This document shows, piece after piece, positions 8,432-60,161 of a DNA stretch of 64,000 bases. This DNA is from Clostridiales bacterium (lineage in GTDB: Bacteria; Bacillota; Clostridia; Christensenellales; UBA1242): assembly GCA_015055515.1 (NCBI GenBank), contig SVIC01000001.1:20114-84113 (forward strand). The letters run 5' to 3'. How positions within the stretch are numbered: position 1 is the first letter of the stretch; each line of letters begins with the position of its first letter. The position numbers were made by a program, and so were the translations under genes. The notes beneath the pieces are model-generated. The model did not search any database, was not told the origin of the DNA, and was given only the letters and a program-made list of their open reading frames with translations.

Positions 8432-8462
8432 CGTAAAAGAATATTTGTCAAAGGGGAAAAAG

Positions 8463-30441: not shown

Positions 30442-30464
30442 AATTTTTTATATTTTTTTAGATT

Positions 30465-30508
30465 TTCAATTATGCTAGAAAAAAATTTCTAGCATAATTG
30501 AATTTTTT
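30465..30508 (+). terminator. Rho-independent terminator after ypeB
   Basis: Perfect 17-bp stem ttcaattatgctagaaa / tttctagcataattgaa followed by T6. Confidence 0.85.
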
Positions 30509-30534
30509 ATTTTTTACAACATATGTGTAATAAT

Positions 30535-30564
30535 TTGACCTACATAGGATTCATTTTATATAAT
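30535..30564 (+). promoter_or_regulatory. Candidate promoter of the giant gene (TTGACC-18 nt-TATAAT)
   Basis: TTGACC lies at 30535-30540 and TATAAT at 30559-30564, about 65 nt upstream of the ATG. The RBS AAGGAAG lies at 30613-30619. Confidence 0.45.
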
Positions 30565-30628
30565 AGATTATACAATAATAATATTTTTTTTAATTTGTGA
30601 AAAAATACAACTAAGGAAGCGAATAAAA

Positions 30629-30706
30629 ATGGGAAAATTTTTCAGAATTGTAAGAAGATTAATATGTGCAGTGATGGTGGCTTTTGCTTGTACGCTTAGT
30701 GCTTGC
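30629..30706 (+). other. Lipoprotein signal peptide with lipobox L-S-A-C (Cys26)
   Basis: In MGKFFRIVRRLICAVMVAFACTLSAC|SCGG, a basic n-region and a hydrophobic core precede LSAC. The Cys26 codon is at 30704-30706. lgt is encoded in the same window. Confidence 0.75.
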
Positions 30707-33700
30707 TCCTGTGGTGGAGGGCCGTATGATAATCTGAAGATTACGGATGTGAGGTTGGTTCAATACACGTCTGGGCACAACAATATAGATGGTAGCGGGG
30801 ATAAGCCTAAGGTTATCATGAATAATGATGCCAATGCTGGTGTATCTGCCAATTATTTCTATATCGAGGTGGTAATAGATGGTTATAACGGATCGGAAGA
30901 GGCGTTGGCTACTATAGCCACATCTGCTGGATATGATGGATATGTTAAGTTCCATTCTTACGAGTATAGTACCAGTGGGTCAAGTAGGGTAGTTAGGGGT
31001 GTATTCGAGGCCATATATGGCGTAGAGAATTTAAGCTTCGATATTCTTACGGTAGAGGGTATGGTTAGCAAAGTATTCAATATTGAGATAATAAAACCAT
31101 TGGATGATTTTGATTTCGTTCAATCAGTTGTACCTGTTATAAAGGGTGAGGCCAATACGATATATGAGAAGTATAAATCCTCTAAATATATTGATTTTAT
31201 ACCTGCGGATAGTACTCAAAGAGAAGTAGAGTTATATCTAGATGAGGCCGATTATTTGCAAGGTGTAGAATTGGGTGGTCTTAACAAGGATAATTTTGTT
31301 ATATCTAGTGGTAATGGACTGATAAAACTTGATTATAAGATGGGCGAAGTGGTACATAATGTTTTATCGATAAATGGCGGATTGCTTGAGGTGTATAACA
31401 ATGATTATGTACCAAATGGTTTTACTTTATCGGCTAGGGCAAGATTGTTAAATGGTAGCGAGGTTGTAGAAAAATGTAGTGTTGTGGTATTAGATCCTAT
31501 AATGCCAGAGGATATACTGGTTGCCAATAAGTTCACAAATGATAGTAATCAGGATGTGAGAAGGTTATTAGATAGTCTTGGTGTTATTGATGGCGTACCT
31601 ACATTTAGATTGTTGCTTGCAAATAATGCGTTTAGTGTTCCTGAGTATGTGAAGCATAAGAGTGCAAATATCCAATTCGGCATGTTGGTTGATCAGACAA
31701 GTAATGGATATCAGACTGACGAAGGAAAGAATATGGCTCTCATTATGAATAGTGGAAACTTAGATGTAGAGGCGGAAAATCTAACAGAGTCTGCAATTAG
31801 ATGTATAAGGGTAGATGATAATGTTGGTGATAATAGTTGTTATAAAATATCTCATACGGTAGCTATTAGTAACAGTTATAATCTTGATTTTAGAGTGTAT
31901 TATAGTAAGTATTCGAAGTTCTTCGATGGCGTTACTGTTAGAGTTGTGTTAGAGGTGTGTGAGTATCCTGATGATATAAAGTTATATGAGAAGAATTCTG
32001 CTGGTGTAAGAGCGGTTGATGAGGTTAATGTGTATTCATCTTATGCCGATTATATTAGTGGAACTCAAGTTATAGCAAATGTTGTATCGAATGAGTTTGA
32101 TGGAGAATTATTATCAAATACATACACTGTAAAAGCAGTAAAGAAGACTGGTGAAAATAGTTATGAAGATGTGAATAGCGGAATTGAATTCAAGCATATG
32201 GCATCAATATTAGTGCCTGGTGTAACTAAGGTTAATTCGGGAGAAGTTGTAACGATATCTGTTAAAGATAAGACATTGGATTTCGATGATCTATATCTAT
32301 GCTACGAAGCAGAAGTTGGTAGTGGTGGATATGTGGTTGCTAAATACATAAAACTAAATTATATTGCTCAAGAGTTGAAATGGAATGATTCTGTATCTAA
32401 TACTATATATGTGCCATTTACTAGTGAAAATATATACAATTCGGATAATGCAAAACAGAAATATTTGAGTATACCTATATCAAATATGGCTAGTTGGGCT
32501 GGTAGTGCAACAAATTTATATAAAAACTTTGTGGCAGATATCAATGATACAGATAGAGTTGTAGAAGGTGTAGATGGAAATTTATATAAGTTAAATATAT
32601 ATACTAGTGTTACAAATCTAAATAATAGGAATGTTATAAAATTAAACGATAACAATCATCCTAATAATATATTTGTATCAGACAATGTATTAAGTGCAGA
32701 AAATATTTGCGAGCCAAAATTGAATATATTATTCGATGCGGGTGAAAACTTGGGTGAATGTCAAGTTGAATTGATGTTGCCGAATGGAAGAAAAACAACA
32801 TTTAAGTTGGTTGTATATTATGAATTACCAGGTGATACATGGTTGACAATGGGTGTTGATCAGGCGGATGATGAAGTAGTAATAAAGAAAGATGAAGAGG
32901 GAGTTGCATCAGTGCAGTTGGATGCATTGGTGGGAGACAAGCAAACATTCGATGTTAATTTCAATCTGCCTAGTGGTAATAAGAAATATTCGCTGATAGA
33001 ATTGCCAACTGATATGAATGCTACATTTGAGACATCGAATAGTAAGGCAGGTAAGTTTGATGATAATGGCATATTGACAATTCTTGGGGTGTATGATTTC
33101 GAAGTAACTATCACTCTAAACGGTTTCTCTGCAAAAAGAGAAGGTGGAGTGATAACTGGAAAAATAACCGATTGGAATGATGTAGAGAAAAATAAAATGA
33201 CATTTACTATAAAAGTAAATGTTGAGTCGCCTGTACGTGAAATTGGGTTATCAAATTCTAAAAGTTCTATATTTACAAAAGATACGTTAAATAACTATTC
33301 GAATACTGGAAGTACTGAGTTTGAGGATAAGGGTGTTAGTATATACTCATTAACTGATTTGACAAATGGTGAGGATATAAATGGTGCATTTGTAAAGTGG
33401 ACATTTGATGTAATAAGCAGTAGTGTGGGTAATGATAATGGCTACAGTGCCAGCTGGTCATTATCAATGAAGAAGGATAATAATGGCAACGATGTCTATG
33501 AGTTCGTTGGTGAAAGTAGCGAATACAAAGGCAATATAAATGCTAAGATACTTAATGGCTATGCTACTAGATATATTCTAAATTATGATATTGATAATGA
33601 TCAAAATGTAGATTTTAAGATATATGTATGTATAAAAGATATCCAGAATATAGCAATATTTGTGGAATACTCTGCCAGTGTATCAGGCATAGATAATACT

Positions 33701-36700
33701 AATGCGGAAATCAATATCGAAGTAGGTGCTATAGTTACTCCTACGTACAAACATTTGGATAATAGTAAATACACTGCTGTATTGTCAAAGGGTGTGATAC
33801 TTAGTGCTCAGAGGAATATGAGAATAAGTAGCATTACTCCAGTATTGGAAAATTCTACAGTTGTATTTGATCTAAGAAATCTGCAGAATGGTGTAGATTA
33901 TGATATTGTCGATAATATAAGATATGTGATGCGTGATACCGCAAATACTAAGAAGACATTCTTATACAAACTAGGATTGCCTCAGCATTATCTTGCGGAT
34001 AGTATCAATAGATCGATAGTAATAACGAAGGATGTTAGCAATTATTCGGTAGTGGTAGATGAAGTTAATCAAGTAGTAACCGTTCAATTGTTAAGTATGC
34101 CAATCCCGGGAACTAGTGGATATGTTAGTCCTAATTATATGACTAGATTGAGTGCAAAGGGTAGTCAGATTAATGAGGGGTCGTATAGTGTAAGTACAAC
34201 TTTTAGAGTTGTGGTAGAGGATGGTATAGCTAATCCTTATAGTATAAGAAATCAGGCGGATTTGCAGAAGATAGCCAATAGTCCAACCTCCAATTATGTA
34301 TTGGCATCAAACATATATCTAGATAGTTCTTATGAACCAGTGGGAACTAAGGGTGTGCCATTCTCTGGAACAATTAGTGGTGCGAAAATATTGGCTGATG
34401 GTACAAAGATAATATATAGTATCAATAACTTTACATACAGAAAGACAAAATCTCTGACAACAGCCAGTGGTGATGACAATGTATACGTTGGTATCTTTGG
34501 TTACGCAATGGGTGCGAAATTCACTGATATAAAGATATATAATGCGAATATTGACATAGATGTCTCTGGTGGTGCAAGTGATGATAATGTGTATGTTGGT
34601 GCCCTAGTTGGATATGCAGACAAGTGTATAATACAAAACATAGCAGTAGATGATGGAAATGATATTGCAAGTATTGATGGATCGGCATTGCAGAAGTTGT
34701 CTGGAAGGTACAAAGAAACTGTAATTAAGGGCAATACTAATGGTATAAAAGTAGACAGTGCAGAAGGTCAGAATACTGATGTGAATGCATATGTAGGTCA
34801 CATTGCAGGAAAATATTATATGACTAGTGATATGCAATCAACTGATGTAAAAGCGTATGGTGTGCTTAGTAGTGATATATTGAATGCAAGAGTAGGAGGA
34901 CTGTATGGTGCTGTTGGGACAGATAGTGGCGTAAAAGCATCTATTACATATAGCAGTGGCAATGACAGCATAGTAACTAAGTATGCCAATGCAGATGTAA
35001 TAGTAGTTATTAATCCAGCATCCTATAATAATATACTGGTAGGCTCATGCATAGGTGGTGCTGTTGGTGAATTAGGCGCTGGTATAACAGTGTCGAATGT
35101 TACTATTAGACCAATAATATTCGGTAAGAGTAATATTGGTGGTGTTGTTGGACAGAACTATGGTGAAGTAAAAGATTGTAAAATATTGCCAATGCTAATG
35201 GGAATAAATAGTATCGGTGGTGTTGCTGGTCAGAATAATGGAACGCTACAATATAACAAAGTGCAATTCATAGACCAAGACGATGAATTGTCGTTCATGA
35301 ACAGTGGATTAATCGGTCAACATGATATGGGCTCGATTGTGGGTGCCAATAATGGTACAGTGTCTTATAACTCTGCATATTCATACATCTCAGATAATAT
35401 CAGTGGGTATGATGGTGTGTCGTTATTAATTAATACAGCGGGCGCATACTATGGCGATATACTGTATTATAAGAGCGATAATAATTATACAGGCAATGCA
35501 AATATTGGTGTATTGATAGGCTCAAGTGTTTCTGGTGCAACGGAAAAATACAACTTTGCCAAATTTAATTATAGAAGCGGTGCAGAAGTTATAGCGATAG
35601 GCAATGTGGATAGTGGTTCTACATCGGTTATATATGTAAATGGTAATGGCTCTGATATAACAAACGTGCCAACTAGTGGTATATATTCTGTTGAAAGCAT
35701 GAATGACAAAGGATACGGCTCTACAGCATATGCTAATGAGAAATACTACAAGTACAAGAAAAATGATGGAAATGATAGTGATATCTATGTTATAAGAGAG
35801 GCAGATGTAAATGGTGTAAATCCTATAGAACTTACTATAGATGTGCCTCCTACAGACATAGAATTAGAAAAACCAAATATTAGTGGGGATATATATGATG
35901 TAGAGTCTAGTGACTACTATATAGCTATTTCTATGTACGAGTTGTTGAAAGATGACCTAGATGGTGTATCGGGCAAGACCGATATAGAACAGGTATTCAT
36001 AGACTATATCAAAGAAGTATTTAAGTCTGAGAATAGATATTCATTGCAAGATCTTGTTAAGATAAATAATTTACCATCTTTTGTAACCGACTCTAGTATG
36101 GTATATACTCTAGCAAAAGGTAGTGAGGCAATTATATCTGTGGTGCAAGGTGAGAGTGGCTTAGAGATAGAAGCGATAGGTGATGGACTAGCACAAATCA
36201 TATTGACTAACATATATAACAAGGAATTAGTCGCTAATATCTACATTCAAGTAAATAGAAAAGTCTCGGATTTCGATATTAGTTCGCTTGCAGAGGGTGC
36301 TAATGAGGATATAACTATTGTAAAAGGTGCTAGTACGAAGTTGTCTTACAACCTACTGTCTCAGTATTATTATGCTAATGAACTAGTATGTCAGTTATAT
36401 AATGCTATTGATATGATGGGTAATATATCTGCTAGAGTGGGTATGAGATTGTTCATGCTAGATGGTAGCAATATATATCATACAACAGATGATATTAACT
36501 CTTATATTAATGATAATTATACCGAATATTTCAGTATTAATGACCTTGACTTCAAGTATATGCAGAATGTGGATGGCTCTAATCAATATTTAATATATGT
36601 AGATATTGATAGTGCGGATGCGTGCTACATCTATGGAATGGAAGAGGTGAGTGGTATTGGAATATACGCTATACCTTACATATATACCTCTACTGGCAAG

Positions 36701-48700: not shown

Positions 48701-51700
48701 GTAATAGATGATAAAGATGTCATGTATGATAAAAACGCTGATGGCACTATAGACATTGCCGATATAGATTACTCTAAGGTATTCAAGTATGTATATGTGC
48801 ATAGTGATAATATAGAAAATGATAACGATCCTAATACAATAGATTTGAACGCTAATGAGAAATCTGTATTTGGTAAGATTGAGATTACAGGAGATGAGAC
48901 ATCGGGATATACTGCAACTTATCCAGAAGATGATCCTGATACAACAGATGTCAATGAGGCAAAATACAACTATCTAGCAAATGATACATTCTTTACTATC
49001 AAAGATTTCAAGAACTTTGCTTGGGGTAGTATCTGGCACAGAGATGGTAGTAATACGAAGTATCCAGTGCTGATGTTTGCTGCAGGATACTGGATAGACT
49101 TTGCTACATTGCCATCTACAGATAATGCAACTGCGAATATTTCTACTCAGATATTCGATGGTACAATTACTCAGACTGAGAAAAATTGGTATAATAGTAA
49201 TAATAATACTACATTCTATATTGATAGAACATCACAACTAGCATGGATTGCTAGAATGACTAATGCGGGCTTTGACTTTAGTGGCAAGACGATTGTGATA
49301 AGGAGCAATTTAAGTTTTGCAGGAAAGATATGGGTAGCAATAGGTCATGCAGACTTCGATGTGATGAGCGGTGGTAAGCACAATAGTAGTCTAACTACAA
49401 CAGACTATGATACTGGTATGGTTAAGGGCAGTACATATAGACCATTCAAGGGTAGTGTCGTTACTGCTACAAATCCGCAAACAAATATACCATATATAAT
49501 GAATATGACATCTATTCGTACAGTATCATTTATGTCATACTATCTGTCAGTTAATGCAGAGAGAGAAGACTTTGTATACAAGAATGAAGTAAACAGAAAG
49601 AATGAGTTAAATAAATACTCGGGACTATTTGGATTGACAGACAATGCTAATATATCTAACATTAGTGTTGGAGAAGGAACTGTCATGGATACGGTAGATG
49701 GTAGTCAGTATGTCGCAGGTGTGGTAGGCTATGCATACAATACTGCACTTACTAATATATCTAGTAGCACTAATATTAGTTATCCAGTAGTATCTGCTGA
49801 TGAAAACAAATATGTATTAGGCGGATATATAGGCCAGATTGCAGGTTATGCAGAGTATAGTGGAGTGGATCTGACTAGTATAGATCCTGGAACAAATAAT
49901 CCAACTGCAAATAACCTATATAATCTATCTGCATATGGCTCAATAGATGCTGATGCTGGATCAAACATTGGTGGTGTCTTTGGCAGATTATATGTTAGTA
50001 GCACTAACAAGCCAATTATACAAAAGATGTCTAGCATGGTTAAGATAGACTATGGTTATACTCTAACAGATATTAATATTAATTATTCGGCTAGTGATAT
50101 GGGTGGTCTTATTGGAAGTGTTGGATCTACCTCCGATCTATTACTATATGATATGACAGTAGGAGTGGTGGATACACAACCAACCAATTCAAAGGTGGTA
50201 TCATTATCTATTAATTCAACAAAAGATATATCTAATATAGGTGGATTAGTAGGTAGTGCTGTCGCAACAACAAATAGTAATATATATCTAGCAAAAGTAT
50301 CAGAGAATACTACTATCAGCAGTACATCTAATAATGTGTCTAACGTAGCAGGACTGGTTGGTAATGCAAATAATGTCATTATTACATCACAGTATGACAA
50401 AGTATTGGCTGCAATATTCTTAACAGGCAAGACTGCTGATATTATTCATATGGTTAATGTTATCGATGGCATACAGCCAGCAACTACTGAATATGTACTT
50501 GCAAGATATAATGACAATGCAAGTGTGCGTGTATATGATTATATAATTACGCTTACAAATGGATCTATTGAGTTATCTAATGGAACTAATGTAGGTGGTA
50601 TGGTAGGTAACGCTAACAATGTAAGGGTATATGGTCTAGTAGATGCTACTATAGAGGCTAATGCAAACAATGGCAATAAGGATTATTATACTACATACAA
50701 TATCTGGTTGCAGAGTGATAAATCTGTGTCGGTAACTACTTCGGGTGGTAATGTAGGTGGTATAGTTGGTAATTATACCGATGGTGATGATAGCACTGGT
50801 AGTAGTGACTATTACACTACTAATTATGTCAAACTAATAAGGAATATTTCTGCAATTAGTGGTACGTCTGGAATGTATGTAGGTGGCATTGTTGGTAATG
50901 CTAGCGACATAATATTAATCCAAGGTGTAATAAATACTGGTACCATAACTAATGGCAACGGTATCGCAGGAAATATTGCAGATGGTAGCTATATCCTAGA
51001 GGCAGAGAGTAGTAATGGCAATGCAGTATATCCTGCCACATCCGATGTTATTGCAAGAAATACAAAACTTAACACAACATGTGTAGGCAATGTATCTGAC
51101 TCATCAGTATGGGATGGAGATAACATAATCTTGTATGCTATCCCAGAGGATAAGTTAGGGTATACAGAGTTAAATGGTGTTAAATATTACACTATAAATA
51201 ATGAACTGGATTATCTAACTGCACAGAAACTTCATAGCATGAGAGTGGGTGGATTGTCATTTACTTACTTAGATGCTGATGACAATCCAATAACCGAAAG
51301 TGGATATCAGTTGGTAAGAGGTGTATCTGGTAACTATATTAACTCTGACAAATTCAATTTGTATTTCGCAGAGGATTTTAAATTGACAGTTCCTAGTCTA
51401 AATCCAATGGGATCAGAGAACTTTGAGTATGTAGGTAAAGTGAACGGTAATGGTAAAACAATTACTATATCTAGTGATACGAAATTAACATCAATTGATG
51501 GTGCAAATACTGGTATATTTGGTGTGCTTGGAGAAAATGCAAATTTGCATAACTTTATAATTAAATATACAGAAGATTTGTCTGATACTACTAGTAGTAT
51601 AGAGAAAGCAAATGTATCTTCGTTGGTTGCAAAGGTATCTTCGAATACAAATGTTGTAACTATAACAGATATTAAGGTGATTAGTGAAAAAATTGACAAC

Positions 51701-54700
51701 GCTGGAAATGTTGTGCCTGTGACTCTTGTGGCTACATCGTCCAACTTAGGCGGAATAGTAGCAAAGGCAGATGGAGATGTAACAATCACTAATTGTAATG
51801 TATCTAATATTACATTCATTAATAAAAATGCTGGAACTAATGGCGGAATAATTGGTGCAGATGGCGGAGTATTGACAATATCTGGTGGTACATTGAAGAA
51901 TGTCACATTAGATGGTGGTCAATATGTAGGTAGTGTCATTGGTAATATGACAAATCATAATTCTTCTGCCGATGGTACAATACTTGATAATGTGACTGTG
52001 TCTTGTGATAACAATAATACAGATTCTCTATCTGCTAGTGCTAATTATGGATTATTAGCGGGATATGTAGCAGGTAGTATAAGTAATATAAAGACACAAC
52101 AAAATACAACATCTAATCTTATTGTTACAGGGGCAAGTAGTACTACACTAAGCGTAGGTGGTATTGCTGGTGTTGTGGCTAGTTCTGCAAATGTTAAGGA
52201 CAATGTGGTGTCATTAACAACTGGCAATGCTGGTGGCACATCCAATGGTTATGCCATAACTGGTACTGCTAATGTAAATGCTGGAGGATTATTCGGCGTA
52301 GTAACAATGGGTAGTAATACAGTATCTGGCAACAAAATCTCTGTAGACAAGATAGAGGTTGAAGGTAATGAGGTGTATTTAGGTGGTGTCGTTAGTGTAA
52401 TAGATAGTGGAAATGAGGAATTGCTTGGTGTAACAAATACTATTAATAAATTATCTGCAACACAACTTAGTCTAAATGTAGGTGCTAATACATCATATGT
52501 AGGCGGTATTGCTGGATCATTGCAACCAAAAGGTAGTGACAATCCTTCAGTATCTCAATTGAGTAGCGTTGTAGGATCGGCTACTGGAGTAAACGATATA
52601 TCAATAGATGTGAAAAGTGATAGTGCATATATAGGTGGGTTATTTGGAGAAATGAACAACGCTACTTATGGTGCGGGTGTAAAAATTGATAATGTATCAA
52701 TAAATAATATCGATGGTGCAAATTTTGCCAAAACGGCATATATCGGCGGTGTTGCTGGTAATATCGTTGGAGATTCTACCATTAGCGGTGTTGTTAATAT
52801 AGGTGGAAATAAGTTAAATATTACTGGTGGAATGTCATCTGGTGGATTATTTGGTAATGTAGCGGGTACATTGAATATAACAAATGCTCCTACGCTAGGA
52901 ACAATAACAATATCTAATGCTGATAATGCAGGTGGATTATTCGGTAATGTGTCTGGTACGGTGAGTGCTAGTGCAATTAGTACAATTGCTAACACTATGA
53001 CCATATCTGGTGCAAACGCTGGTGCTATTGCTGGTAGTGTAAGTGGTAATGGAAATATAACATTTGCAAGCAATCAAGTAGACATAATTGATAATACAGA
53101 TAATACTATAACAATCACTGGTAGCACCAATGCAGGTATGGCATTTGGTGTGATAGAATATACTGCTAGTATCAATGGTCAATCTAATGGTATAGCAAAT
53201 ATTGCTATATCTGGTGGCTCTGTAATAGGTAATAGCAATGTCGGTGGTGTTGTTGGTAGAATATCCGGTACAACCGCTGTAACATTTAGCAATGTATCTG
53301 CTAATAGTACAGGTATAACAGCAAGTGGTATAACAACTAACGCTGGTGGTATCATTGGTGCTATAAATAATGGTCAGACATTGACTATCAATACTATGGG
53401 CGTATCGACTACTATCACTGGTGGAGGCAACGCTGGTGGTATAGTTGGTAATGTAGCGGGAATGCTAACTATATCTAGTGATCCAACATTAAATGCAATA
53501 AAAATATCTAATGCTGATAATGCAGGTGGATTATTTGGTAATGTGTCTGGTACGGTGAGTGCTAGTGAAATTAGTACAATTGCTAACACTATGACAATAT
53601 CTGGTGCAAACGCTGGTGCTATTGCTGGTAGTGTAAGTGGTAGTATATCATTTAATGCTACTGCAACTAATCCATTAAAAATATCTGCTGATGATATGGA
53701 AATTACAGGTAGTGCTAATGCAAGTATGGCATTTGGTGTGATATCGGATACTGCAAAAGTTAATTCTAATACTGATAGAACGGTTGAAAATATTAGCATA
53801 ACTAATGGTGCTGTTATAAGTAGTAGTACAGCCAATGCAGGTGGACTATGTGGAAGTGTTGAAGGTACAAATACTATACAATTAACTAATATAAGTGTAA
53901 ATAGCACCAAGTTATATAACAAAGATGGCGGAGGCAATATTGCCACTAGTGGAAATATTGGTGGTGTGATAGGAATAGTTGGATCTGATCAGACTGTAAA
54001 TATCTCCGATATTGCTATTAACACAACTATCACTGGTGGAAGTAATGCTGGTGGTATAGTTGGTAATGCAACGGAAGGATCAACAATCGCTATGTCAAGT
54101 GGTACAATATCGGATACGATAAATATCACCGGTGCAAATACTGCTGGTGGTGTCGCTGGTAGTGTAAGTGGTAAGATGACATTTGGATCTACCGATATTC
54201 AGATCACTGCTACAAATATTGCAATTACAAGTACAAGTAATGCAGGTATTGCATTTGGTGTGATAACAGATACTGCTATGGTTAATTCTAATACTGCTGG
54301 AACTATACAGAATGTCACTATAACTGGTGGTACTGTTACAAGTAGCAATGCAGGTGGTGTAGTAGGTAGTATTACAGGTGACAATGCTGTAACATTTAGT
54401 AATGTGATGGTAGGTGGTACGACTATTATTGCAAATGCTAGCAGTGCTAGTATTGGTGGTATGATAGGTAGTGCTGTCAATATTATAATTATTAATGATA
54501 CTAATAATACTAATAAATTTACATCTACTACAACAATAAAAGTAAATGATAAAGATGGTAGCAACGCAAATATCCAGAGTGTAAACCTAGGTGGATTTGT
54601 AGGTAAAGCAAATTGTGCGACTATAACGAATGTTACAAATAGCAATATTGCTACAAGTATTCCAGAAATTGCTAACATAGTAGCTAACTTAGGTGGTATT

Positions 54701-57700
54701 GTAGGATATATTGATACATCAGATGATGTTACTATTAAGATTACAAATGCAACTAACAATATTGCATTAGGTCACGCTACTAGCGTAGCGAATGCTGGTG
54801 GTATAGTTGGTGGCATGACAATGAATAATGGTGCTACTGCAGAATTTGTAGGCAATGTCAACAATGGTGATATCACAGCAAAAGAAAATGCTGGTGGTAT
54901 ACTAGGTAATGGAATAATTGCAGATAAGTATGAGAATAATTCCATTAAAGGAAACTCTATTGATAACAAGAATGGTATTATTAAGATTAAAGGAACTACT
55001 ACTGCTGATAAGCAGGTCATTGGTAATGGATTGACTATCAAGGCGGATAACGCTGGTGGTGTCGTTGGTAAAGTAGACTTGAAGACACCAGAAAGTTCAG
55101 ACAATGCTGATGTAAAACAATATTATGTGCTGGCATATATTACTAACTTCGATAACTATTATAAGGTAGGGTTCGTAAATATAACACAAGATGACCCAGA
55201 TACAGAAGACAAAAATGAATATAAGGTAGAGGGTACAACCACTGCTGGAGGTATTGCAGGACTATTAAGAGTATCTTATGTAGAGAATTGTGATAATCAT
55301 GGTAGTAGTATTACAGGTACATCTAGTATAGGTGGTATCGTTGGTCAAATGAATGGTAGACTTGTTACAAACTGTACTAATTATAGTGATATCAAGAATA
55401 GCACAAATGTGAATAATGTAGGTGGTATTGTTGGTGCAAACTCCATAGGCGGAATATCTGATTGTACTAACAAAGGAAAGATTGAGTCCAGTGCTAGTGC
55501 AGTAGGTGGAATAGCAGGTGGTGCAAACTCCAATCAGTCTAGATTAAAGGCAAATTCGACAGAATATGAGCTGATTTACGCATGGGATAATGTTGGTATA
55601 ATTAATTGTAAGAACTATGCAAATGTAATCAATACGAAGACATATGGAAATTCTGCAGGTGGTATTGTGGGATCTTCTAATGGTGGAATATTCAATAATT
55701 GCATAGTTGGTGATGAGTCTTCTGCTACTACCACAATAACCATATCTGCGTATAGTTATGCAGGCGGTATTGTAGGTGATATTGCAATGAATGGTTGGGT
55801 TGTAATAGGCGGAGTACAATTAAAAAATAATAAATTGTATGACAATATAACTATTGATTCTAAGAACTATGCTGGTGCTTCTGGTGGTATTGTTGGAACA
55901 ATATTAGTAGGAGCAGATATAAAGTTCAGTGGAGAGTCTTCTTATGAATCTGGTACAGATGAAATTGGAGGACTAAATGGAACTCTTTCTCATATTACTA
56001 ATGATACAACTTATACTATACCTAGTACTGTAAAGGTAATAGGTAGGGCAATAGGTGGTGTTGTAGGTATGGTAGATGTGGGTTCTAGAAAGGCCAATGA
56101 TAGTACATATAGTAATATCAAAGAAAACGCTATATTTGCACATATTAGCAAGTTTGTTAATGAAGCAACAATAGTTGGTAGAGTGGGACCATTTGAATTT
56201 GGAACAACTAGTTACAACAATGTTAAATCATTAGGAAAGGCATCATCTGGTGGTATTGCAGGATCATTAAGATGTAGTGTGGTAGAGAATTGTAGCAACA
56301 ATTCTAGTAATATTACGGCAGGAGATTATAAAATCAAAGAATCCGGTAGTACTGCTTATACCGATGTGTTCGGTGCAATTGGTGGAATAGTAGGCGAAAT
56401 GAATGGTAGATATATTGATGATTGTACGAATACTGGAGAGTTGAAAGGCTCGGGAAGCTGTATTTATGACAAAAATGATGATGGTACGGATAAGGAACAT
56501 CCTTATTCTGCATTGTCTGTAGGTGGTATAACTGGTAGAATAACCGTTGGATATATTACAGATTGTACTAACTTGGCTAGTATTACAGGACCAAACGATG
56601 TCGGTGGAATAGCAGGTGGTGCTATTCAACCAGTAGGTGATGGTACCTTGAGTGCCCCAGTAACGTATTCTTGGGCTAAAGTTAACGGGAATGGAGCAAT
56701 CATTCCATTCTCTGGTAATACAAATGGAAGAAGCGGTAGTGTTAATGGTATAACTATTACATCCACAGCTGGTAACGTTGGTGGTATATTCGGATCTGCT
56801 TCTACTGTTATAATATCTGCTACAACTATTAATTATGCAAAGATTGTAGGCGGTAATAATGCTGGTGGTATAATAGGTCTGGTTAGTGCAACATCGGATA
56901 TCACTGCCAACAACTCTGGTGCAGTATCTTCTACTAGTGGTTATGCCGCAGGAATTGTAGGATATATTTCTAGCGGTGCTTTGGCAGGAACAACTATTAA
57001 TGGTACTAATAGTGGAACAATAAATGGCAAGACTGAGGCTAATGTGACAGGCGATAAAGAAGACTGGATCTACAATCCTAGAATAAGGGTAACATTTGTT
57101 GTTGAGAACAATACAGATACATCTGGTGCGACAAGTGCATTTAAGATTACATTTAGCAATGTGAATGATATGTCTACGACAGGAAGTAATGTAACATTAA
57201 GCAATAATGGTACTACAAAACTCAGAGCAAATGGTACAATTACATTCACTATATCCAATTCTAATTCTTCAACTTATTCTAACAAAGTAAGGGTGAAAGG
57301 GCATTACGGGACGGCTAGTGCTATAGATGCTATAGCTGGAACAAGTGAAATAAGCTTGAAACTAGATGGGAATTCACATAATTATACAATCACATTGTTG
57401 GCTTCTTATTACTATTATGAGAGAACTAGAGATGGCGATAGTGGTGCTACAAAACACTCAACAAATTTGGTCTGTGGCACGACTCAGCATAGTCATGGAA
57501 CAAATTGTTATAAATATGTGTTGGATTGTAGTAATACAGAAGAAGGGCATGAGCATGGCGAAAGTTGTAATAAACGTGTATTAAATTGTACTAGTGCGCA
57601 TCATTCAAGCAGTTGCTATTGTAGTTATTTTGACTATACAACCACTGGAGAAAATAAATCTTCAGGGCATTATTCTAGCATGCCTAGTTACTCAATTAGA

Positions 57701-57766
57701 TGTGAATGTGGATCTTGGTCTAATTCCTCTACATATCAAAGTAAAGATCCATATTTTAGATGGTAG
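30629..57766 (+). CDS. Giant (9,045 aa) surface lipoprotein: Ig-like regions plus at least 7 GLUG-motif beta-helix-type modules and a C-terminal Cys/His-rich module
   Basis: Single uninterrupted 27,138-nt ORF with an RBS, promoter and terminator. It has a lipoprotein signal peptide. I counted roughly a hundred copies by eye of x-[VI]-G-G-[ILVF]-x-G-x-N-x-G-x-[IV]-x-[ND]. Module heads of the type I.t.eeL..i.....Y.L..DIDL....W.PIG...PF.G.F.GNG..I lie near 34235, 38860, 41160, 43735, 47390, 49230 and 51200. Confidence 0.9.
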   Translation: MGKFFRIVRRLICAVMVAFACTLSACSCGGGPYDNLKITDVRLVQYTSGHNNIDGSGDKPKVIMNNDANAGVSANYFYIEVVIDGYNGSEEALATIATSAGYDGYVKFHSYEYSTSGSSRVVRGVFEAIYGVENLSFDILTVEGMVSKVFNIEIIKPLDDFDFVQSVVPVIKGEANTIYEKYKSSKYIDFIPADSTQREVELYLDEADYLQGVELGGLNKDNFVISSGNGLIKLDYKMGEVVHNVLSINGGLLEVYNNDYVPNGFTLSARARLLNGSEVVEKCSVVVLDPIMPEDILVANKFTNDSNQDVRRLLDSLGVIDGVPTFRLLLANNAFSVPEYVKHKSANIQFGMLVDQTSNGYQTDEGKNMALIMNSGNLDVEAENLTESAIRCIRVDDNVGDNSCYKISHTVAISNSYNLDFRVYYSKYSKFFDGVTVRVVLEVCEYPDDIKLYEKNSAGVRAVDEVNVYSSYADYISGTQVIANVVSNEFDGELLSNTYTVKAVKKTGENSYEDVNSGIEFKHMASILVPGVTKVNSGEVVTISVKDKTLDFDDLYLCYEAEVGSGGYVVAKYIKLNYIAQELKWNDSVSNTIYVPFTSENIYNSDNAKQKYLSIPISNMASWAGSATNLYKNFVADINDTDRVVEGVDGNLYKLNIYTSVTNLNNRNVIKLNDNNHPNNIFVSDNVLSAENICEPKLNILFDAGENLGECQVELMLPNGRKTTFKLVVYYELPGDTWLTMGVDQADDEVVIKKDEEGVASVQLDALVGDKQTFDVNFNLPSGNKKYSLIELPTDMNATFETSNSKAGKFDDNGILTILGVYDFEVTITLNGFSAKREGGVITGKITDWNDVEKNKMTFTIKVNVESPVREIGLSNSKSSIFTKDTLNNYSNTGSTEFEDKGVSIYSLTDLTNGEDINGAFVKWTFDVISSSVGNDNGYSASWSLSMKKDNNGNDVYEFVGESSEYKGNINAKILNGYATRYILNYDIDNDQNVDFKIYVCIKDIQNIAIFVEYSASVSGIDNTNAEINIEVGAIVTPTYKHLDNSKYTAVLSKGVILSAQRNMRISSITPVLENSTVVFDLRNLQNGVDYDIVDNIRYVMRDTANTKKTFLYKLGLPQHYLADSINRSIVITKDVSNYSVVVDEVNQVVTVQLLSMPIPGTSGYVSPNYMTRLSAKGSQINEGSYSVSTTFRVVVEDGIANPYSIRNQADLQKIANSPTSNYVLASNIYLDSSYEPVGTKGVPFSGTISGAKILADGTKIIYSINNFTYRKTKSLTTASGDDNVYVGIFGYAMGAKFTDIKIYNANIDIDVSGGASDDNVYVGALVGYADKCIIQNIAVDDGNDIASIDGSALQKLSGRYKETVIKGNTNGIKVDSAEGQNTDVNAYVGHIAGKYYMTSDMQSTDVKAYGVLSSDILNARVGGLYGAVGTDSGVKASITYSSGNDSIVTKYANADVIVVINPASYNNILVGSCIGGAVGELGAGITVSNVTIRPIIFGKSNIGGVVGQNYGEVKDCKILPMLMGINSIGGVAGQNNGTLQYNKVQFIDQDDELSFMNSGLIGQHDMGSIVGANNGTVSYNSAYSYISDNISGYDGVSLLINTAGAYYGDILYYKSDNNYTGNANIGVLIGSSVSGATEKYNFAKFNYRSGAEVIAIGNVDSGSTSVIYVNGNGSDITNVPTSGIYSVESMNDKGYGSTAYANEKYYKYKKNDGNDSDIYVIREADVNGVNPIELTIDVPPTDIELEKPNISGDIYDVESSDYYIAISMYELLKDDLDGVSGKTDIEQVFIDYIKEVFKSENRYSLQDLVKINNLPSFVTDSSMVYTLAKGSEAIISVVQGESGLEIEAIGDGLAQIILTNIYNKELVANIYIQVNRKVSDFDISSLAEGANEDITIVKGASTKLSYNLLSQYYYANELVCQLYNAIDMMGNISARVGMRLFMLDGSNIYHTTDDINSYINDNYTEYFSINDLDFKYMQNVDGSNQYLIYVDIDSADACYIYGMEEVSGIGIYAIPYIYTSTGKDKAVLQYFYKWNADGTYNIIENASYEDGLGDKITLNVVKGTTGLSSLDISNVGTPKEATKFSVTMTTDNSDNSKLYFYISDNKNEYNIAGRDRITSIPSQIGGADFYSYVRDGKTIYFNDIYLYEVGIDLNESIAIFDKYQIKLLARKVEENKVTYNFQIEVLDQFKYDCKSSEQYVITFLTNYIIEEESAVEKIGSLRLGYTLMPQELESSDINHFNDVELKTYNVEEGVPTDGYDVNLDLASNTIVIGYNGLLQIDIYPGYANVDKVEITSTSIGGVYVDFEQLVEETTINIANDTSDKYVSRMFYTTYSKAEKERGKITLENITNVYEVNGERRYGFDGTYYVKTYIGNIVDESSNFVLTIKYYSDGNVIEEKTKSFVLYPVIPPTISATINQSKNAPIAIGTDAVIDIKTENMWEEFKVELSGTNGSTVASLNNALDTQNNHFNANEDVIKQMTDKGWLISVNGGYQLTLPVKYDESLIGKELTITMTVKKLINNKVYFAKTNIRIQLALFVVNSMQVDGVENGKFTGIFNQAYELRVNVNATYSKDQDENKTNYIKSQIKLLESRITSNGLDDVGENDIRATKTWFAQENNGQYTNLSIFKPRYGYVVENSYYNISYMSNSGVYENRNFSTLKFRNNILNTNDTIMAQTLIMYSPRDVYNDGASFSGVYVYSASDKGDMGANGTYIPDESDYKYSFSVEFTFNMQRLSNEENPTPVYTEEDLLEMVEGLPYILMEDIEVEDWKPLNTAISSLDGNGHVIRINSFANLEAGSTTAGLFGTISSDTIIKNLIIELPPNPLQMYQTLDPSASDILIDIGTTTQFNFGVVAGVNNGVITNTIVINNADNYRLERDQLLLKENKLSDAEFNERLTKYYYARVQELISEYSYYGARSLTQVRVKSTLEETSSTSIKIGGFVGVNNGFITNSAVEGVSISGPFYVGGFASDNTSKISSSYYKNGNVINNRGNAIQYSGTAGFVVNNSGDIAYSYVEGINTQANINVISGVVLNGEDVLVEYNTLTEQKNGLGNESLREYIGYEYGYVDELFDIRHFGNAVYSTKDSAGFVYNNTGDVNNSYSNIVVAGNSTAGFVYYNKDKATIDSAYSLSSIIRDNIKYSPFGARDSVTGATLNKGSITNAFFLKVSIEDYITLQEQDPSANVGDIIVDKSAYDDIKTDDEKAQYTEYIISKDSEGNDVKQYVKTVYEDRYKSTVVDGLSKGIYDFSDYETFNTFTFNEDKSNNGDSVAKSVWYIPTESMYDEGNTFDKYFKKSTYNINIPQLVSANLRTTSIKYGNFIDPLAKNASIEDIENTLVDDMAISMVGNIISYANDYYNNKVKGVNNDISLTNTKTIYLYAYLTNAYDNFAKNNNWAQDYQRVFYDELRDLRDANADFGYEIDLNISEGDINNVTHDYDGIFTFLKGKVEAKLDADLSNLNKDVEKMREILIAQINTVNQVDEGAESAYSYSNILKNAYDVELVYGDSVLNPYLIDSADDFNIYGLQINEEGVITTNQLDKSMRLVKDIAFGELNKSAQTYDVDFYGDLEGNNMSMSNIKLSAPTESDNSNVRKDFGLFRSLGKLDADDDTKYYATIRNMTLNVEYINANAIEKVGALAGSINYGRIYNVTINGASDNSTISGANVVGGLAGFIGGDTIISNIISNIDVTAKYLHSVSGIGVNLFDATNENIARRNTTIGTEVYQVVGGKLQLVTKANIDSDSGLEPSTAHQFNIYIPFSTKFSQIAYAGGIAGIIDVKDIETGVDDLEDTVYAVTGSKLTGKSVITGEVVGGLFGFAGYQVNIIGSEVDVETGMQLDSAGIAGGMVGHMLGSLDKSFVVNTTQSTMDATLYKNVNSASTTTHNYYNYYGNNSGEVTNFYGGNAHYIGGLIGMAHGAVITHSYNRVDVTNINSKYAGGIIGMAIGSYMDDVYTTASVYSYRAYGGTIGIQTKVATITAPGADATYMLENAYNTNGNNSNQVYHIYNQITYLDTFYDKKDPNDPAVIIAKAENKVASELKDVLEIDSLNSINLWKRDHKNIDRAQYGGAVAPRAYIGSFVGFVVSESGWITYPEISERVIKENAYFMQAFKYNGTQDSEYELLAEVGNAKNNYLSAMKDDKYIAQGQYFVMTMTESNRSILGQNIYTITTPDGKKVLEDGGIYSVSKIVHELELLYGVDKVKNAGTNPTEVNVIHYDVTNNALILRTSNQVYTIATFSHSISNTVNYKYNDVYQGYSGDIIISPTDQRSYRFSRVQQYGSLRTLKEFVTGTYLHSETSNMKYAYVVGSNVAQGGDMAVPTLNPVVPSVYTTWRKDVWNGVEVVNGVRVDASKYVFPSRRYLTYKNVIYVYEFQDLLDNTEQYPDATYILMNNIDMSDYNGNIPLNRNVPFSGVLKSNKLGGQYQNYVIYGMRVEGSANDTFGLFATVKGATFIGFKIAVDYVNIALTDSNGDDITTAGILFGNQDTDKRIRIQDVEILGEYNSNHRGIFQVSGANYVGGLFGKANNVSLIYTGNANGGLDYAVNRLSINVASVSTDDINIGGISGYINNRYDGLLINSVKTLDTEINVSLVLEGRIKKVNVGGIFGHAIAKDNITMSGCGVDVDANVQNNTIKQTVKVDNEDYTVVKNPGINMYLAGREGYQPEGNHKVLVGGLVGKSEIIMDNENNADALVTTNINVNNGTYRFKVFNNSEYNWNSPDNSYVSSKSDIAVGGVVGSVDYFGDDVVIINGVKAHANIKFSQVGDAIEGTKTYVGGAVGAIGAGFFGNEVGVKNINAIGVEGNIDVSVSGVSKNIYTGGIFGYLTNAGNVTESKSNVNISTKLNNGSEGVFLGGFVGHMEDKVEDNLSDTTIGGANDINATINVDVAENATTREIYVGNFAGKVNGMDSERLQISNLVAGGTVNLTGGTDSTLENSYISGFAGHATNVNLSQIATTGKILAEDNTLNITKSYLAGIVGYGEDFSLDQSFSNMTIAIYTRSDDATTIDIDESKLNTVGNHVGGLVGYIKLEGTGATPETVITDSYSAVFIDYDLANNNPTNASTITSEDETNNDASFIGGIIGQLDNYANNLILFDIDRVYSISNIPAITNYDYIKIYDEYNTIGGILGQSTAGKYTDASGTENDCPAYITSAFGSTYYNAELIPYSNYYGMAMGSDEMLFGNFADTYLSIGDGAGKWKQEINNSYPLLNWDNPVQVDGSRQNPIKTTATTVLEEEMSYIIDNEGILSASTNTASNIFYFNGHSISATQLFGTIDSKSIIVGVKSNSNGITIANENNGIIVSTYDNNNKIKVANTNNGVIHAYIASESGANSAYVVGENNGLISSSIVSTSVLPSSISNVSLSKIVYTSASGTLSFSGVYDTYIRQKGMEKVTYIDSNGTPKQFEKIAYDPNKIYATDISNFIISKNNDFTLDFDNVWTMFVVDGLSPADSNLRNNGAPMLRLEVKVRSGTGKWYYRDIDLYDYKYNYSDIDRNADNVIDDNDYVDTSKLYNRDIPYVSTAVYEQNKTMYGNYVWAYSMGTISGYEYYKVINGNTGEEEIHGLKSINNNIIPGSQITIDGDKIITITIKKPSELAWIAYMVNTGQFDFEGVTIIVGANIDLSGKMWTPIGTKVHPFKGSFNGGGYNQESGSMKIIHTISNLNIINADVAGLFGYVAPVENPAEINMFNISVNKGLVIATDTITTGNQVGGSAGSLIGAVVKGDANDLKYSVDFVVTRTNDYEMVLGYNTDVSIRETINNNLAKYVISDSDGVIFNMANINDLSDNKAYFVNDGGNPVVTKYSTTTNYVAIKDDGGRTIKLNGTETTDKYRIEQIGVECDIMKVCDPVDSKEHTLQVVGANAGGMVGYVSSGADVDIIRAENNTYVYSYTGVKNTGAMNYAGGIVGRAEGKLVNMSTIANQGDVYGLYAGGLIGYAKEAVLIENAYNSNGDVSDATAIKDINITTYDAINGGVGAFVGYMNYNVSAGALIANSRDAIIEESYSSTGNTNLVGEYVVDSTLGFDTNNDGVIDDKDVMYDKNADGTIDIADIDYSKVFKYVYVHSDNIENDNDPNTIDLNANEKSVFGKIEITGDETSGYTATYPEDDPDTTDVNEAKYNYLANDTFFTIKDFKNFAWGSIWHRDGSNTKYPVLMFAAGYWIDFATLPSTDNATANISTQIFDGTITQTEKNWYNSNNNTTFYIDRTSQLAWIARMTNAGFDFSGKTIVIRSNLSFAGKIWVAIGHADFDVMSGGKHNSSLTTTDYDTGMVKGSTYRPFKGSVVTATNPQTNIPYIMNMTSIRTVSFMSYYLSVNAEREDFVYKNEVNRKNELNKYSGLFGLTDNANISNISVGEGTVMDTVDGSQYVAGVVGYAYNTALTNISSSTNISYPVVSADENKYVLGGYIGQIAGYAEYSGVDLTSIDPGTNNPTANNLYNLSAYGSIDADAGSNIGGVFGRLYVSSTNKPIIQKMSSMVKIDYGYTLTDININYSASDMGGLIGSVGSTSDLLLYDMTVGVVDTQPTNSKVVSLSINSTKDISNIGGLVGSAVATTNSNIYLAKVSENTTISSTSNNVSNVAGLVGNANNVIITSQYDKVLAAIFLTGKTADIIHMVNVIDGIQPATTEYVLARYNDNASVRVYDYIITLTNGSIELSNGTNVGGMVGNANNVRVYGLVDATIEANANNGNKDYYTTYNIWLQSDKSVSVTTSGGNVGGIVGNYTDGDDSTGSSDYYTTNYVKLIRNISAISGTSGMYVGGIVGNASDIILIQGVINTGTITNGNGIAGNIADGSYILEAESSNGNAVYPATSDVIARNTKLNTTCVGNVSDSSVWDGDNIILYAIPEDKLGYTELNGVKYYTINNELDYLTAQKLHSMRVGGLSFTYLDADDNPITESGYQLVRGVSGNYINSDKFNLYFAEDFKLTVPSLNPMGSENFEYVGKVNGNGKTITISSDTKLTSIDGANTGIFGVLGENANLHNFIIKYTEDLSDTTSSIEKANVSSLVAKVSSNTNVVTITDIKVISEKIDNAGNVVPVTLVATSSNLGGIVAKADGDVTITNCNVSNITFINKNAGTNGGIIGADGGVLTISGGTLKNVTLDGGQYVGSVIGNMTNHNSSADGTILDNVTVSCDNNNTDSLSASANYGLLAGYVAGSISNIKTQQNTTSNLIVTGASSTTLSVGGIAGVVASSANVKDNVVSLTTGNAGGTSNGYAITGTANVNAGGLFGVVTMGSNTVSGNKISVDKIEVEGNEVYLGGVVSVIDSGNEELLGVTNTINKLSATQLSLNVGANTSYVGGIAGSLQPKGSDNPSVSQLSSVVGSATGVNDISIDVKSDSAYIGGLFGEMNNATYGAGVKIDNVSINNIDGANFAKTAYIGGVAGNIVGDSTISGVVNIGGNKLNITGGMSSGGLFGNVAGTLNITNAPTLGTITISNADNAGGLFGNVSGTVSASAISTIANTMTISGANAGAIAGSVSGNGNITFASNQVDIIDNTDNTITITGSTNAGMAFGVIEYTASINGQSNGIANIAISGGSVIGNSNVGGVVGRISGTTAVTFSNVSANSTGITASGITTNAGGIIGAINNGQTLTINTMGVSTTITGGGNAGGIVGNVAGMLTISSDPTLNAIKISNADNAGGLFGNVSGTVSASEISTIANTMTISGANAGAIAGSVSGSISFNATATNPLKISADDMEITGSANASMAFGVISDTAKVNSNTDRTVENISITNGAVISSSTANAGGLCGSVEGTNTIQLTNISVNSTKLYNKDGGGNIATSGNIGGVIGIVGSDQTVNISDIAINTTITGGSNAGGIVGNATEGSTIAMSSGTISDTINITGANTAGGVAGSVSGKMTFGSTDIQITATNIAITSTSNAGIAFGVITDTAMVNSNTAGTIQNVTITGGTVTSSNAGGVVGSITGDNAVTFSNVMVGGTTIIANASSASIGGMIGSAVNIIIINDTNNTNKFTSTTTIKVNDKDGSNANIQSVNLGGFVGKANCATITNVTNSNIATSIPEIANIVANLGGIVGYIDTSDDVTIKITNATNNIALGHATSVANAGGIVGGMTMNNGATAEFVGNVNNGDITAKENAGGILGNGIIADKYENNSIKGNSIDNKNGIIKIKGTTTADKQVIGNGLTIKADNAGGVVGKVDLKTPESSDNADVKQYYVLAYITNFDNYYKVGFVNITQDDPDTEDKNEYKVEGTTTAGGIAGLLRVSYVENCDNHGSSITGTSSIGGIVGQMNGRLVTNCTNYSDIKNSTNVNNVGGIVGANSIGGISDCTNKGKIESSASAVGGIAGGANSNQSRLKANSTEYELIYAWDNVGIINCKNYANVINTKTYGNSAGGIVGSSNGGIFNNCIVGDESSATTTITISAYSYAGGIVGDIAMNGWVVIGGVQLKNNKLYDNITIDSKNYAGASGGIVGTILVGADIKFSGESSYESGTDEIGGLNGTLSHITNDTTYTIPSTVKVIGRAIGGVVGMVDVGSRKANDSTYSNIKENAIFAHISKFVNEATIVGRVGPFEFGTTSYNNVKSLGKASSGGIAGSLRCSVVENCSNNSSNITAGDYKIKESGSTAYTDVFGAIGGIVGEMNGRYIDDCTNTGELKGSGSCIYDKNDDGTDKEHPYSALSVGGITGRITVGYITDCTNLASITGPNDVGGIAGGAIQPVGDGTLSAPVTYSWAKVNGNGAIIPFSGNTNGRSGSVNGITITSTAGNVGGIFGSASTVIISATTINYAKIVGGNNAGGIIGLVSATSDITANNSGAVSSTSGYAAGIVGYISSGALAGTTINGTNSGTINGKTEANVTGDKEDWIYNPRIRVTFVVENNTDTSGATSAFKITFSNVNDMSTTGSNVTLSNNGTTKLRANGTITFTISNSNSSTYSNKVRVKGHYGTASAIDAIAGTSEISLKLDGNSHNYTITLLASYYYYERTRDGDSGATKHSTNLVCGTTQHSHGTNCYKYVLDCSNTEEGHEHGESCNKRVLNCTSAHHSSSCYCSYFDYTTTGENKSSGHYSSMPSYSIRCECGSWSNSSTYQSKDPYFRW
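52790..54480 (+). repeat. Three tandem intragenic repeat units (period 594 nt = 198 aa) inside the giant gene
   Basis: The core 52909-53048 and the core 53503-53642 are 140 nt long and differ at only 3 positions. The offset is exactly 594 nt, so it is in frame. A third, more diverged unit lies around 54100-54300 (gcatttggtgtgata recurs at about 53141, 53727 and 54245). Confidence 0.85.
57470..57763 (+). other. C-terminal Cys/His-rich module of the giant protein
   Basis: The sequence VCGTTQHSHGTNCY-KYVLDCSNTEEGHEHGESCN-KRVLNCTSAHHSSSCYC...IRCECGSW carries three C-x(4-7)-H-x-H-x(3-4)-C-like units plus extra Cys residues. The protein ends in ...DPYFRW. Confidence 0.6.
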
Positions 57767-57804
57767 TATTGAAGTTGTTTTAATTTTAATATTTACTAAA
57801 AAAT

Positions 57805-57839
57805 AAAGGTATTTTGCAATTTTGCAAAGTACCTTTTTT
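57805..57839 (+). terminator. Rho-independent terminator of the giant gene
   Basis: Stem aaggtattttgcaa / ttgcaaagtacctt (one G-U pair) followed by T6. Confidence 0.78.
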
Positions 57840-57877
57840 AATACAATAATAAGTGTAATTGCACTTATTATTGTATT
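57840..57877. repeat. Perfect 16-bp inverted repeat (aatacaataataagtg-N6-cacttattattgtatt)
   Basis: Read directly from the sequence. It abuts the terminator and is not followed by a T-run. Confidence 0.8.
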
Positions 57878-57976
57878 AAATGTTGCTGTATATGAAATAG
57901 ATGAGTATATGTAAGTTAAAAAAATTGAGAAAAAGAGGATATATGAATGGTGTGTTATCGTGATTACATTTGCCTA

Positions 57977-58005: not shown

Positions 58006-58037
58006 ATACTAAGGATAATGTGTAGGAGAATCTATAA

Positions 58038-60147: not shown

Positions 60148-60161
60148 AATAAGGAGGATAT

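Follow-up and report, generated by a model that had tools for sequence, protein, structure and literature searches.

The window, by which we mean the whole 64,000-nt stretch of DNA that was analysed, carries on its forward strand an open reading frame (ORF) of 9,045 amino acids (aa) whose sole stop codon lies at the 3′ end, according both to the ORF list and to our own translation (Table 1). A first-pass annotation of this DNA had called a single uninterrupted ORF here, and the translation, which is free of internal stops, bears that out. GC content (0.33-0.37) and GC skew inside this giant gene are like those of its flanks. Its neighbours are chromosomal housekeeping and sporulation genes, among them nusG, the genes for ribosomal proteins L11, L1 and L10, lgt and a DivIVA gene, with spoIIR-sleB-ypeB directly upstream. 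We considered the possibility that the gene is the cargo of a mobile element and rejected it on the grounds of uniform composition, conserved synteny and the nearby nusG and ribosomal-protein genes.

Table 1. Features of the giant gene and of its product, with positions in the window; amino acid numbers refer to the giant protein.
Feature	Window position	Strand	Description
Intrinsic terminator of upstream ypeB gene	30465..30502	+	17-bp stem, then T-run
Sigma-70-type promoter of giant gene	30535..30564	+	TTGACC-18-TATAAT, 11/12 matches
RBS of giant gene	30613..30619	+	AAGGAAG, 9 nt 5′ of ATG; Shine-Dalgarno kept in 5-species alignment
Whole giant ORF	30629..57766	+	9,045 codons + stop
Predicted lipoprotein signal peptide	30629..30706	+	MGKFFRIVRR, hydrophobic core, LSAC with Cys26; PROSITE-type rule and conservation
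N-terminal orphan region, aa 27-1194	30707..34210	+	No Pfam or PDB match
GLUG module 1, aa 1195-1732	34211..35824	+	Head and external module profile; Pfam GLUG 23.9 bits at aa 1470-1560
Orphan inter-module region I1, aa 1733-2735	35825..38833	+	Best conserved among orthologues, 40-53% identity
GLUG module 2, aa 2736-3277	38834..40459	+	Weakest: i-E 0.0074 with giant-free module profile, 1.8e-8 with head profile
GLUG module 3, aa 3503-4126	41135..43006	+	Head and module profiles, Pfam GLUG segment scan
GLUG module 4, aa 4368-5261	43730..46411	+	Head and module profiles
GLUG module 5, aa 5573-6162	47345..49114	+	Best-conserved head; head and module profiles
GLUG module 6, aa 6184-6894	49178..51310	+	Head and module profiles
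GLUG module 7, aa 6899-~8800	51323..57028	+	~1,900-aa array, rungs about 28-35 aa
C-terminal orphan region, aa 8801-9045	57029..57763	+	Cys/His-rich end, two HxHx3Cx6C units (nt 57488-57589)
Giant-gene terminator	57805..57842	+	14-bp stem (hairpin 57805-57836), then U-run

Signals for transcription and translation bracket the ORF. In an alignment of the ypeB/giant intergenic region from five species (window 30442-30628 and loci L008, L009, L010 and L012), the −35 element TTGAC and the −10 element TATATAAT are invariant, and the hairpin of the ypeB terminator is kept through compensatory stem changes (GCTAG/CTAGC, GGTAG/CTACC, GGTGA/TCACC). The terminator of the giant gene itself was overlooked by a simple terminator scan and detected by folding, which gave its hairpin a dG of −17 kcal/mol and a z of −5.3, with none of 200 shuffles equally stable. 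Scanning and folding together recovered the upstream terminator, the promoter with its RBS and the gene's own terminator, all of which the first-pass annotation had proposed, and its coordinates for the ORF and these signals were correct throughout.

Repetition at the DNA level is minimal within the giant gene, which contains no tandem arrays and whose longest direct repeat measures 210 nt at 89% identity; this makes an assembly chimera unlikely. The repeat is part of a super-repeat of about 522-594 nt at window 52839-54353, the copies of which (about 175-198 aa, or 6-7 rungs) are 76-89% identical in DNA. The super-repeat is the only recent internal duplication; it suggests growth of the last module by tandem duplication. 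Three antisense ORFs of 186-190 aa lie within this repeat region (51334-51906, 53374-53946 and 54199-54759, all on the reverse strand); we rejected them as genes, since they most likely arise from the codon pattern that the repeats share. In seven contigs of other JGI metagenome samples, window 56807-61120 recurs at 100% identity, including the last 960 nt of the ORF. Among the genomes and metagenomes that we reached, no independent assembly of the ORF interior was found: no metagenome contig contained a 39-mer drawn from the interior stretch most prone to repeats, a scan of genomes and metagenomes with the N-terminus gave no match, its candidate list apparently having been filled by chance 8-mer matches, and neighbouring proteins, looked up by exact match, led only to short contigs of the same strain that end at or before the giant gene.

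A survey of related genomes, as suggested in the first-pass annotation, uncovered colinear orthologues after sleB-ypeB in five gut metagenome-assembled genomes (MAGs). In these species-level MAGs (L008, L009, L010, L012 and L018) a huge lipobox-bearing ORF of at least 2,765 aa lies right after ypeB; the lengths are lower bounds, the loci having been viewed with 10-kb flanks. The four closest orthologues align colinearly along about 2,700 aa, with identities of 48, 38, 36 and 34%, and that of L018 aligns more weakly, at about 26%. Among 61 related loci that extend 3 kb or more past ypeB, the giant gene occurs in these five alone and is therefore restricted to a clade. By a genome scan with SleB, the organism falls among gut Clostridia that are uncultured and carry the labels Christensenella, Clostridia, Coproplasma or Borkfalkiaceae. 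The giant gene diverges faster than most neighbouring genes: in L008, regions of the giant protein are 44-53% identical, compared with 53-86% for eight neighbouring proteins, while in more distant species the giant-region identities overlap those of the least conserved neighbours. Near sleB-ypeB in a more distant relative (locus L045, 15612-19463, reverse strand) we also found a different GLUG-module protein, of 1,284 aa (E 8.4e-41 with a module profile).

Just downstream of the giant gene, at window 58038-61208 on the forward strand, are three tandem paralogous ORFs of 358, 347 and 348 aa, each with an HExxH motif (HEVCH, HEGYH and HECYH). They are cytoplasmic by prediction and have a promoter of their own (TTGAAA-17-TATAAT at 57977-58005); no signal peptide, Pfam match or PDB match was found for them. 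It is curious that HExxH paralogues should adjoin a GLUG protein with no protease domain of its own.

The N-terminus of the giant protein, MGKFFRIVRR-LICAVMVAFACT-LSAC26-SCGG, satisfies a PROSITE-type lipoprotein rule, which calls for a positive n-region, a hydrophobic core and a lipobox of the form [LVI][ASTVI][GAS]C with the Cys at position 15-35. The same lipobox pattern is matched in all five orthologues, and the aligned Cys is kept in every one of them (ISAC, LVAC, LASC, LVSC and FVSC). Motif scans of the whole protein found neither an LPXTG-like motif nor HExxH, and outside the signal peptide there is no hydrophobic window, the C-terminus included, that could form a second transmembrane (TM) helix. 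The lipobox at Cys26 and the absence of LPXTG, a C-terminal TM helix and HExxH had all been read from the sequence in the first-pass annotation, and the rule, the orthologues and the scans uphold each of these readings. An lgt gene at window 8445-9308 (forward strand; PF01790, E 8.6e-49) is consistent with lipoprotein processing in the host organism; no lspA was found within the window. Judged by its N-terminus, the giant protein is probably lipid-anchored at the surface. We rejected its identity as an M26 IgA1 metalloprotease, as it has no HExxH, no Peptidase_M26 match in Pfam, no LPXTG and no G5 match.

About 6,000 aa of the protein fall into seven GLUG modules. A head profile built mostly from the heads of external GLUG proteins places module heads at about aa 1201, 2755, 3512, 4378, 5580, 6191 and 6907 (i-E 1e-37 to 3e-7) and a partial eighth head at aa 8680. 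The giant-free module profile, made only of 45 modules from external GLUG proteins, matches the protein with E 1.9e-125 and high compositional bias, its 30 envelopes resolving into seven modules; it scored the modules more weakly than the head profile scored the heads. These profiles agree with the seven modules with conserved heads described in the first-pass annotation.

The same annotation had equated the repeated motif with Pfam GLUG (PF07581), an assignment that holds on short segments and among relatives of the modules. When the giant protein was scanned in pieces of 1,000-2,000 aa, nothing in Pfam or NCBIfam exceeded its cut-off, and the sole GLUG match reached 16.2 bits. With segments of about 100 aa, PF07581 (gathering cut-off 20.5 bits) passed in module 1 (Table 1) and at aa 8195-8320, where three stretches together gave 30.4 bits; four further short segments gave 14.9-18.3 bits, under the cut-off. 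As the giant protein illustrates, the GLUG motif can go undetected when Pfam is run on very long pieces, and automatic annotation of such giants may miss it likewise. A search with module 5 found 30 weak relatives (E 3e-9 to 6e-4), matched mainly in the head. PF07581 is present in 18 of them, and one bears the name "GLUG motif-containing protein". Their lengths range over 467-1,074 aa, with one to three modules each, often about 380 aa apart. A tblastn search with module 5 returned two weak, head-only plasmid matches and no match in phages.

The strict motif GG[ILVF]xG occurs 63 times in the protein, 37 of them in the last module, whereas shuffles lead one to expect about 2.5 occurrences; a variant allowing M raises the count to 67 and looser patterns to about 81. 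The earlier estimate of about 48 out of roughly 100 motifs in the last module was therefore too high. A rung HMM identified 48 significant units, spaced mostly 28-35 aa apart.

PDB sequence searches with single modules and with module 7 gave no match. A mixed profile of giant modules and GLUG relatives, dominated by the external sequences, matched the structure 3n6z with E 1.8e-30 and the Streptococcus pneumoniae IgA1 protease 6xja, at chain residues 117-396, with E 4e-12; by mapping chain residues to protein residues, this stretch is the NTD2 beta-helix. Structure prediction and Foldseek searches by module, which had also been suggested beforehand, put the beta-helices of IgA1 proteases and 3n6z on top with weak E-values. 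The two AlphaFold models, made from shallow and messy alignments, have mean pLDDT values of 49.8 and 51.5; confidence is high only for the head (pLDDT 75-96) and for aa 8203-8393 (pLDDT 80-93), the latter modelled as three short strands per rung of about 30 aa. For these two models the top Foldseek matches were the IgA1 proteases 6xja and 7uvl (probability 0.99-1.0, E 1e-2) and 3n6z (probability 1.0, E 3.7e-4); pectate lyases, pectin methylesterases and tailspikes came next, at probabilities of at most 0.23. The profile searches show that the modules are homologous to GLUG modules, and the top Foldseek matches make the right-handed parallel beta-helix of IgA1 proteases their probable fold.

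The remaining third of the protein, about 3,000 aa, is made up of orphan regions, which in addition to those in Table 1 comprise aa 3278-3502, 4127-4367 and 5262-5572. No Pfam or PDB match was found for the orphan regions, orthologue profiles of the N-terminal region and I1 included, nor any similarity between them. In a HMMER search of 1.84 billion representative proteins the N-terminal region has only three relatives, all of them fragments on short contigs, and a word-indexed homologue search with the N-terminal 1,200 aa gave no match. The first-pass annotation had described the first 1,200 aa or so as Ig-like in appearance; neither Pfam nor the PDB lends this support, aa 27-1200 having no Pfam match even at E ≤ 10 and no PDB match with an orthologue profile. 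For the C-terminal 246 aa, neither the word-indexed homologue search nor a PDB sequence search produced a match. No ligand-binding domain was identified in the giant protein.

The very end of the protein (window 57434-57763, aa 8936-9045) is rich in Cys and His and contains two equally spaced HxHx3Cx6C units, HSHGTNCYKYVLDC and HEHGESCNKRVLNC, along with further CxC pairs; no homologues of this tail were found. From this pattern of residues it looks like a small metal-binding tip. Elsewhere, in module 5, two adjacent DxNxDGxID motifs (DTNNDGVID and DKNADGTID; window 48683-48754, aa 6019-6042) resemble the calcium loops of EF-hands and dockerins, with Pfam EF-hand E-values of 2.7-6.6. At those E-values, and with no dockerin match in Pfam, we rejected a dockerin or cellulosome protein.

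The function of GLUG is still described as unknown, and an adhesin or surface role has been proposed for the GLUG proteins of gut methanogens (PMC9723798). The sole structurally described role that we found in the literature for a GLUG-type beta-helix is that of a protease gating domain, namely the beta-helix NTD2 of IgA1 protease (PMC9637739). The GLUG protein BACOVA_03286 of B. ovatus (3n6z, a "putative IgA1 protease") and M26 NTD2 (6xja, 7uvk) are built from the same module type as the giant protein, with a helix and the cap or head 'DIDLsg..WtPIG...PFkGtFDGnGhtI' followed by GGxxG rungs. Whereas GLUG relatives have 467-1,074 aa and one to three modules, the giant protein has seven, the last of about 1,900 aa; it further differs from M26 and GLUG proteins in its roughly 3,000 aa of orphan sequence, in having a lipobox in place of LPXTG, and in lacking an M26 domain, HExxH and G5. 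Rather than accompanying a protease, the GLUG beta-helix is here a building block used over and over.

Giant surface and adhesion proteins are a recognised class (PMC11573180; PMC12863079; bioRxiv 10.1101/2023.11.21.568195). Repeat-rich surface proteins of 10,000-30,000 aa have already been described from gut Clostridia in that preprint, so that size alone is not novel. The first-pass annotation had called the architecture uncharacterised and bacterial genes above 20 kb rare; the former is fair for the family of the giant protein, and the argument from rarity is weakened by these Clostridia giants. Like the giants of that preprint and of PMC11573180, the present protein is very large, repeat-rich, extracellular, from the gut and presumed to be adhesive. 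The Clostridia giants use RCC1, Listeria-Bacteroides repeats, YG repeats, dockerins or LRRs, and the portion of the preprint available (bioRxiv 10.1101/2023.11.21.568195) reports neither a GLUG beta-helix array nor lipoprotein anchoring.

Other giants offer partial parallels. Giant1-5 and the serine-rich repeat proteins (SRRPs) of Apilactobacillus kunkeei are also extracellular Firmicutes proteins, of 3,000-8,000 aa, with a beta-solenoid, fast evolution and a putative role as adhesins (PMC12863079). In the A. kunkeei giants, just one beta-solenoid, N-terminal and of SRRP type, precedes alpha-helical rods, and the C-terminal domain is SH3b-like (PMC12863079), in contrast to the many GLUG-type solenoids and N-terminal lipid anchor predicted here. 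Halomucin of Haloquadratum walsbyi, at 9,159 aa, is of nearly equal size, has a Sec signal and is extracellular (PMC4378361), a likeness by description; it is archaeal, loosely attached or secreted, and has C-type lectin domains, with no lipobox reported in the available part of that source. The Gram-negative adhesins FHA/TpsA and the autotransporters Ag43 and UpaB likewise use a long right-handed beta-helix as an extended adhesive rod, and Ag43 and UpaB are among the weak Foldseek matches (probability ≤0.01), a generic likeness of fold; the giant protein has neither the two-partner-secretion domain nor the autotransporter barrel of these adhesins. What is new in the giant protein is its multi-module GLUG layout, its lipoprotein anchor, its large orphan fraction and its Cys/His tail.

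Taking these observations as a whole, we regard the giant gene as real, chromosomal and transcribed on its own, in a gut bacterium of the uncultured, Christensenellales-like Clostridia. We consider it somewhat probable that its product is a giant cell-surface lipoprotein, best read as a fibre or adhesin that is tethered by lipid, evolves fast and strings beta-helices together like beads. The pre-protein would be exported via Sec, after which Lgt would modify Cys26 with a diacylglyceryl group and signal peptidase II would remove the signal peptide. Its N-terminus would then sit in the outer leaflet of the membrane, with the remainder projecting outward as beads on a string: a lineage-specific stalk of about 1,170 aa, seven capped right-handed beta-helix rods of the GLUG/IgA1-protease-NTD2 type with orphan regions between them, the last rod being about 1,900 aa long, and a Cys/His-rich distal tip. 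If a rung takes about 30 aa and rises about 0.48 nm, the roughly 6,000 aa of beta-helix would span on the order of 100 nm; both the rise and end-to-end stacking of the rods are assumptions that were not computed. Such a fibre would most likely act as an adhesin or surface shield, binding host, dietary or partner-cell surfaces, and the fast evolution of the giant protein would be as with other exposed proteins. This role agrees with proposals made for the GLUG proteins of gut methanogens (PMC9723798) and for giant surface proteins of bacteria at large (PMC11573180; PMC12863079; bioRxiv 10.1101/2023.11.21.568195). The analyses above establish the ORF, its expression signals, the conserved lipobox, the GLUG homology with its module layout, the synteny and a divergence faster than that of most neighbouring genes; lipidation, the extended geometry and the adhesive role we infer.

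Four other explanations rank below the fibre or adhesin, given the points for and against each. The protein could be a shed matrix or coat protein like halomucin, released by cleavage or held by weak attachment to form a loose protective or aggregating layer. Halomucin combines a similar size with a Sec signal and a loose association with the cell (PMC4378361), the annotation of another Haloquadratum labels a halomucin-homologous region as a GLUG-motif CDS (PMC4330952), and the giant proteins of A. kunkeei also occur in cell-free supernatant (PMC12863079). Strict conservation of the lipobox Cys in five of five orthologues nevertheless argues for a lipid anchor, and no Ser/Thr/Pro-rich, mucin-like stretch is prominent in the composition, so that we regard a shed coat as unlikely. 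Pectate lyases, phage tailspike depolymerases and the accessory domains of IgA1 proteases are the model for a beta-helix enzyme or enzyme scaffold, whose modules or orphan regions would act on glycans or proteins by cleaving or modifying them. In Foldseek the IgA1 proteases are followed by pectate lyases, pectin methylesterases and tailspikes, the roughly 3,000 unannotated aa could conceal catalytic domains, and I1 is the best-conserved part of the protein; yet Pfam, NCBIfam and the PDB revealed no catalytic family, HExxH is absent and the Foldseek probabilities of the enzymes do not exceed 0.23, which leaves an enzyme distinctly unlikely.

It is more improbable still that the protein is a polymorphic toxin or contact-dependent effector of the WapA/CdiA kind, in which the filament would present the variable Cys/His tail and the genes downstream would be protective. 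The orphan C-terminal 245 aa, with two units resembling metal sites, and the three tandem paralogous cytoplasmic ORFs directly downstream would suit such a system, but no known toxin or pre-toxin domain was found, aa 8801-9045 match no family or PDB entry, and the downstream ORFs, at about 350 aa, with HExxH, behind the terminator of the giant gene and under their own promoter, are atypical for immunity genes. We give very little credence, finally, to an assembly chimera or decaying pseudogene that merely resembles one gene. The metagenomic origin of the window, the breaks of same-strain short-read assemblies around the giant gene and the failure to find an independent contig over its interior all speak for such an artefact. 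Against it stand 9,045 stop-free codons in DNA of 35% GC, a longest internal repeat of only 210 nt at 89% identity and the absence of tandem arrays, the colinearity of the first ~2,700 aa with orthologues from independent MAGs, the seven other assemblies identical over the last 960 nt and flank, and the conserved expression signals.

A bolder extension of the fibre or adhesin reading is conceivable, if doubtful: the giant protein would be the first of a class of multi-rod beta-helix fibres that are lipid-anchored and peculiar to its lineage, and its orphan stalk, I1 and HxHx3Cx6C tip would be new folds in which the protein's actual activity resides. A metal-dependent tip might in that case bind or attack partner cells, so that gut Christensenellales-like bacteria would aggregate with other microbes or with host mucus.

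The giant protein may bear on the ways in which Christensenellales-type Clostridia, which are widespread in the gut but poorly cultured, attach to hosts, food particles or partner microbes. A 27-kb gene is a large investment for a bacterium whose genome is presumably small, and the fact that several species keep it at the same locus argues for an important function at the surface. The window also holds other sizeable ORFs to which no Pfam family could be assigned, at 13431-15869 and 6394-8316 on the forward strand and at 15955-17010 and 18357-20849 on the reverse strand; among their products are an 812-aa protein bearing hydrophobic segments at both termini, a signal-anchored protein of 351 aa and a Lys/Asn-rich protein of 830 aa.
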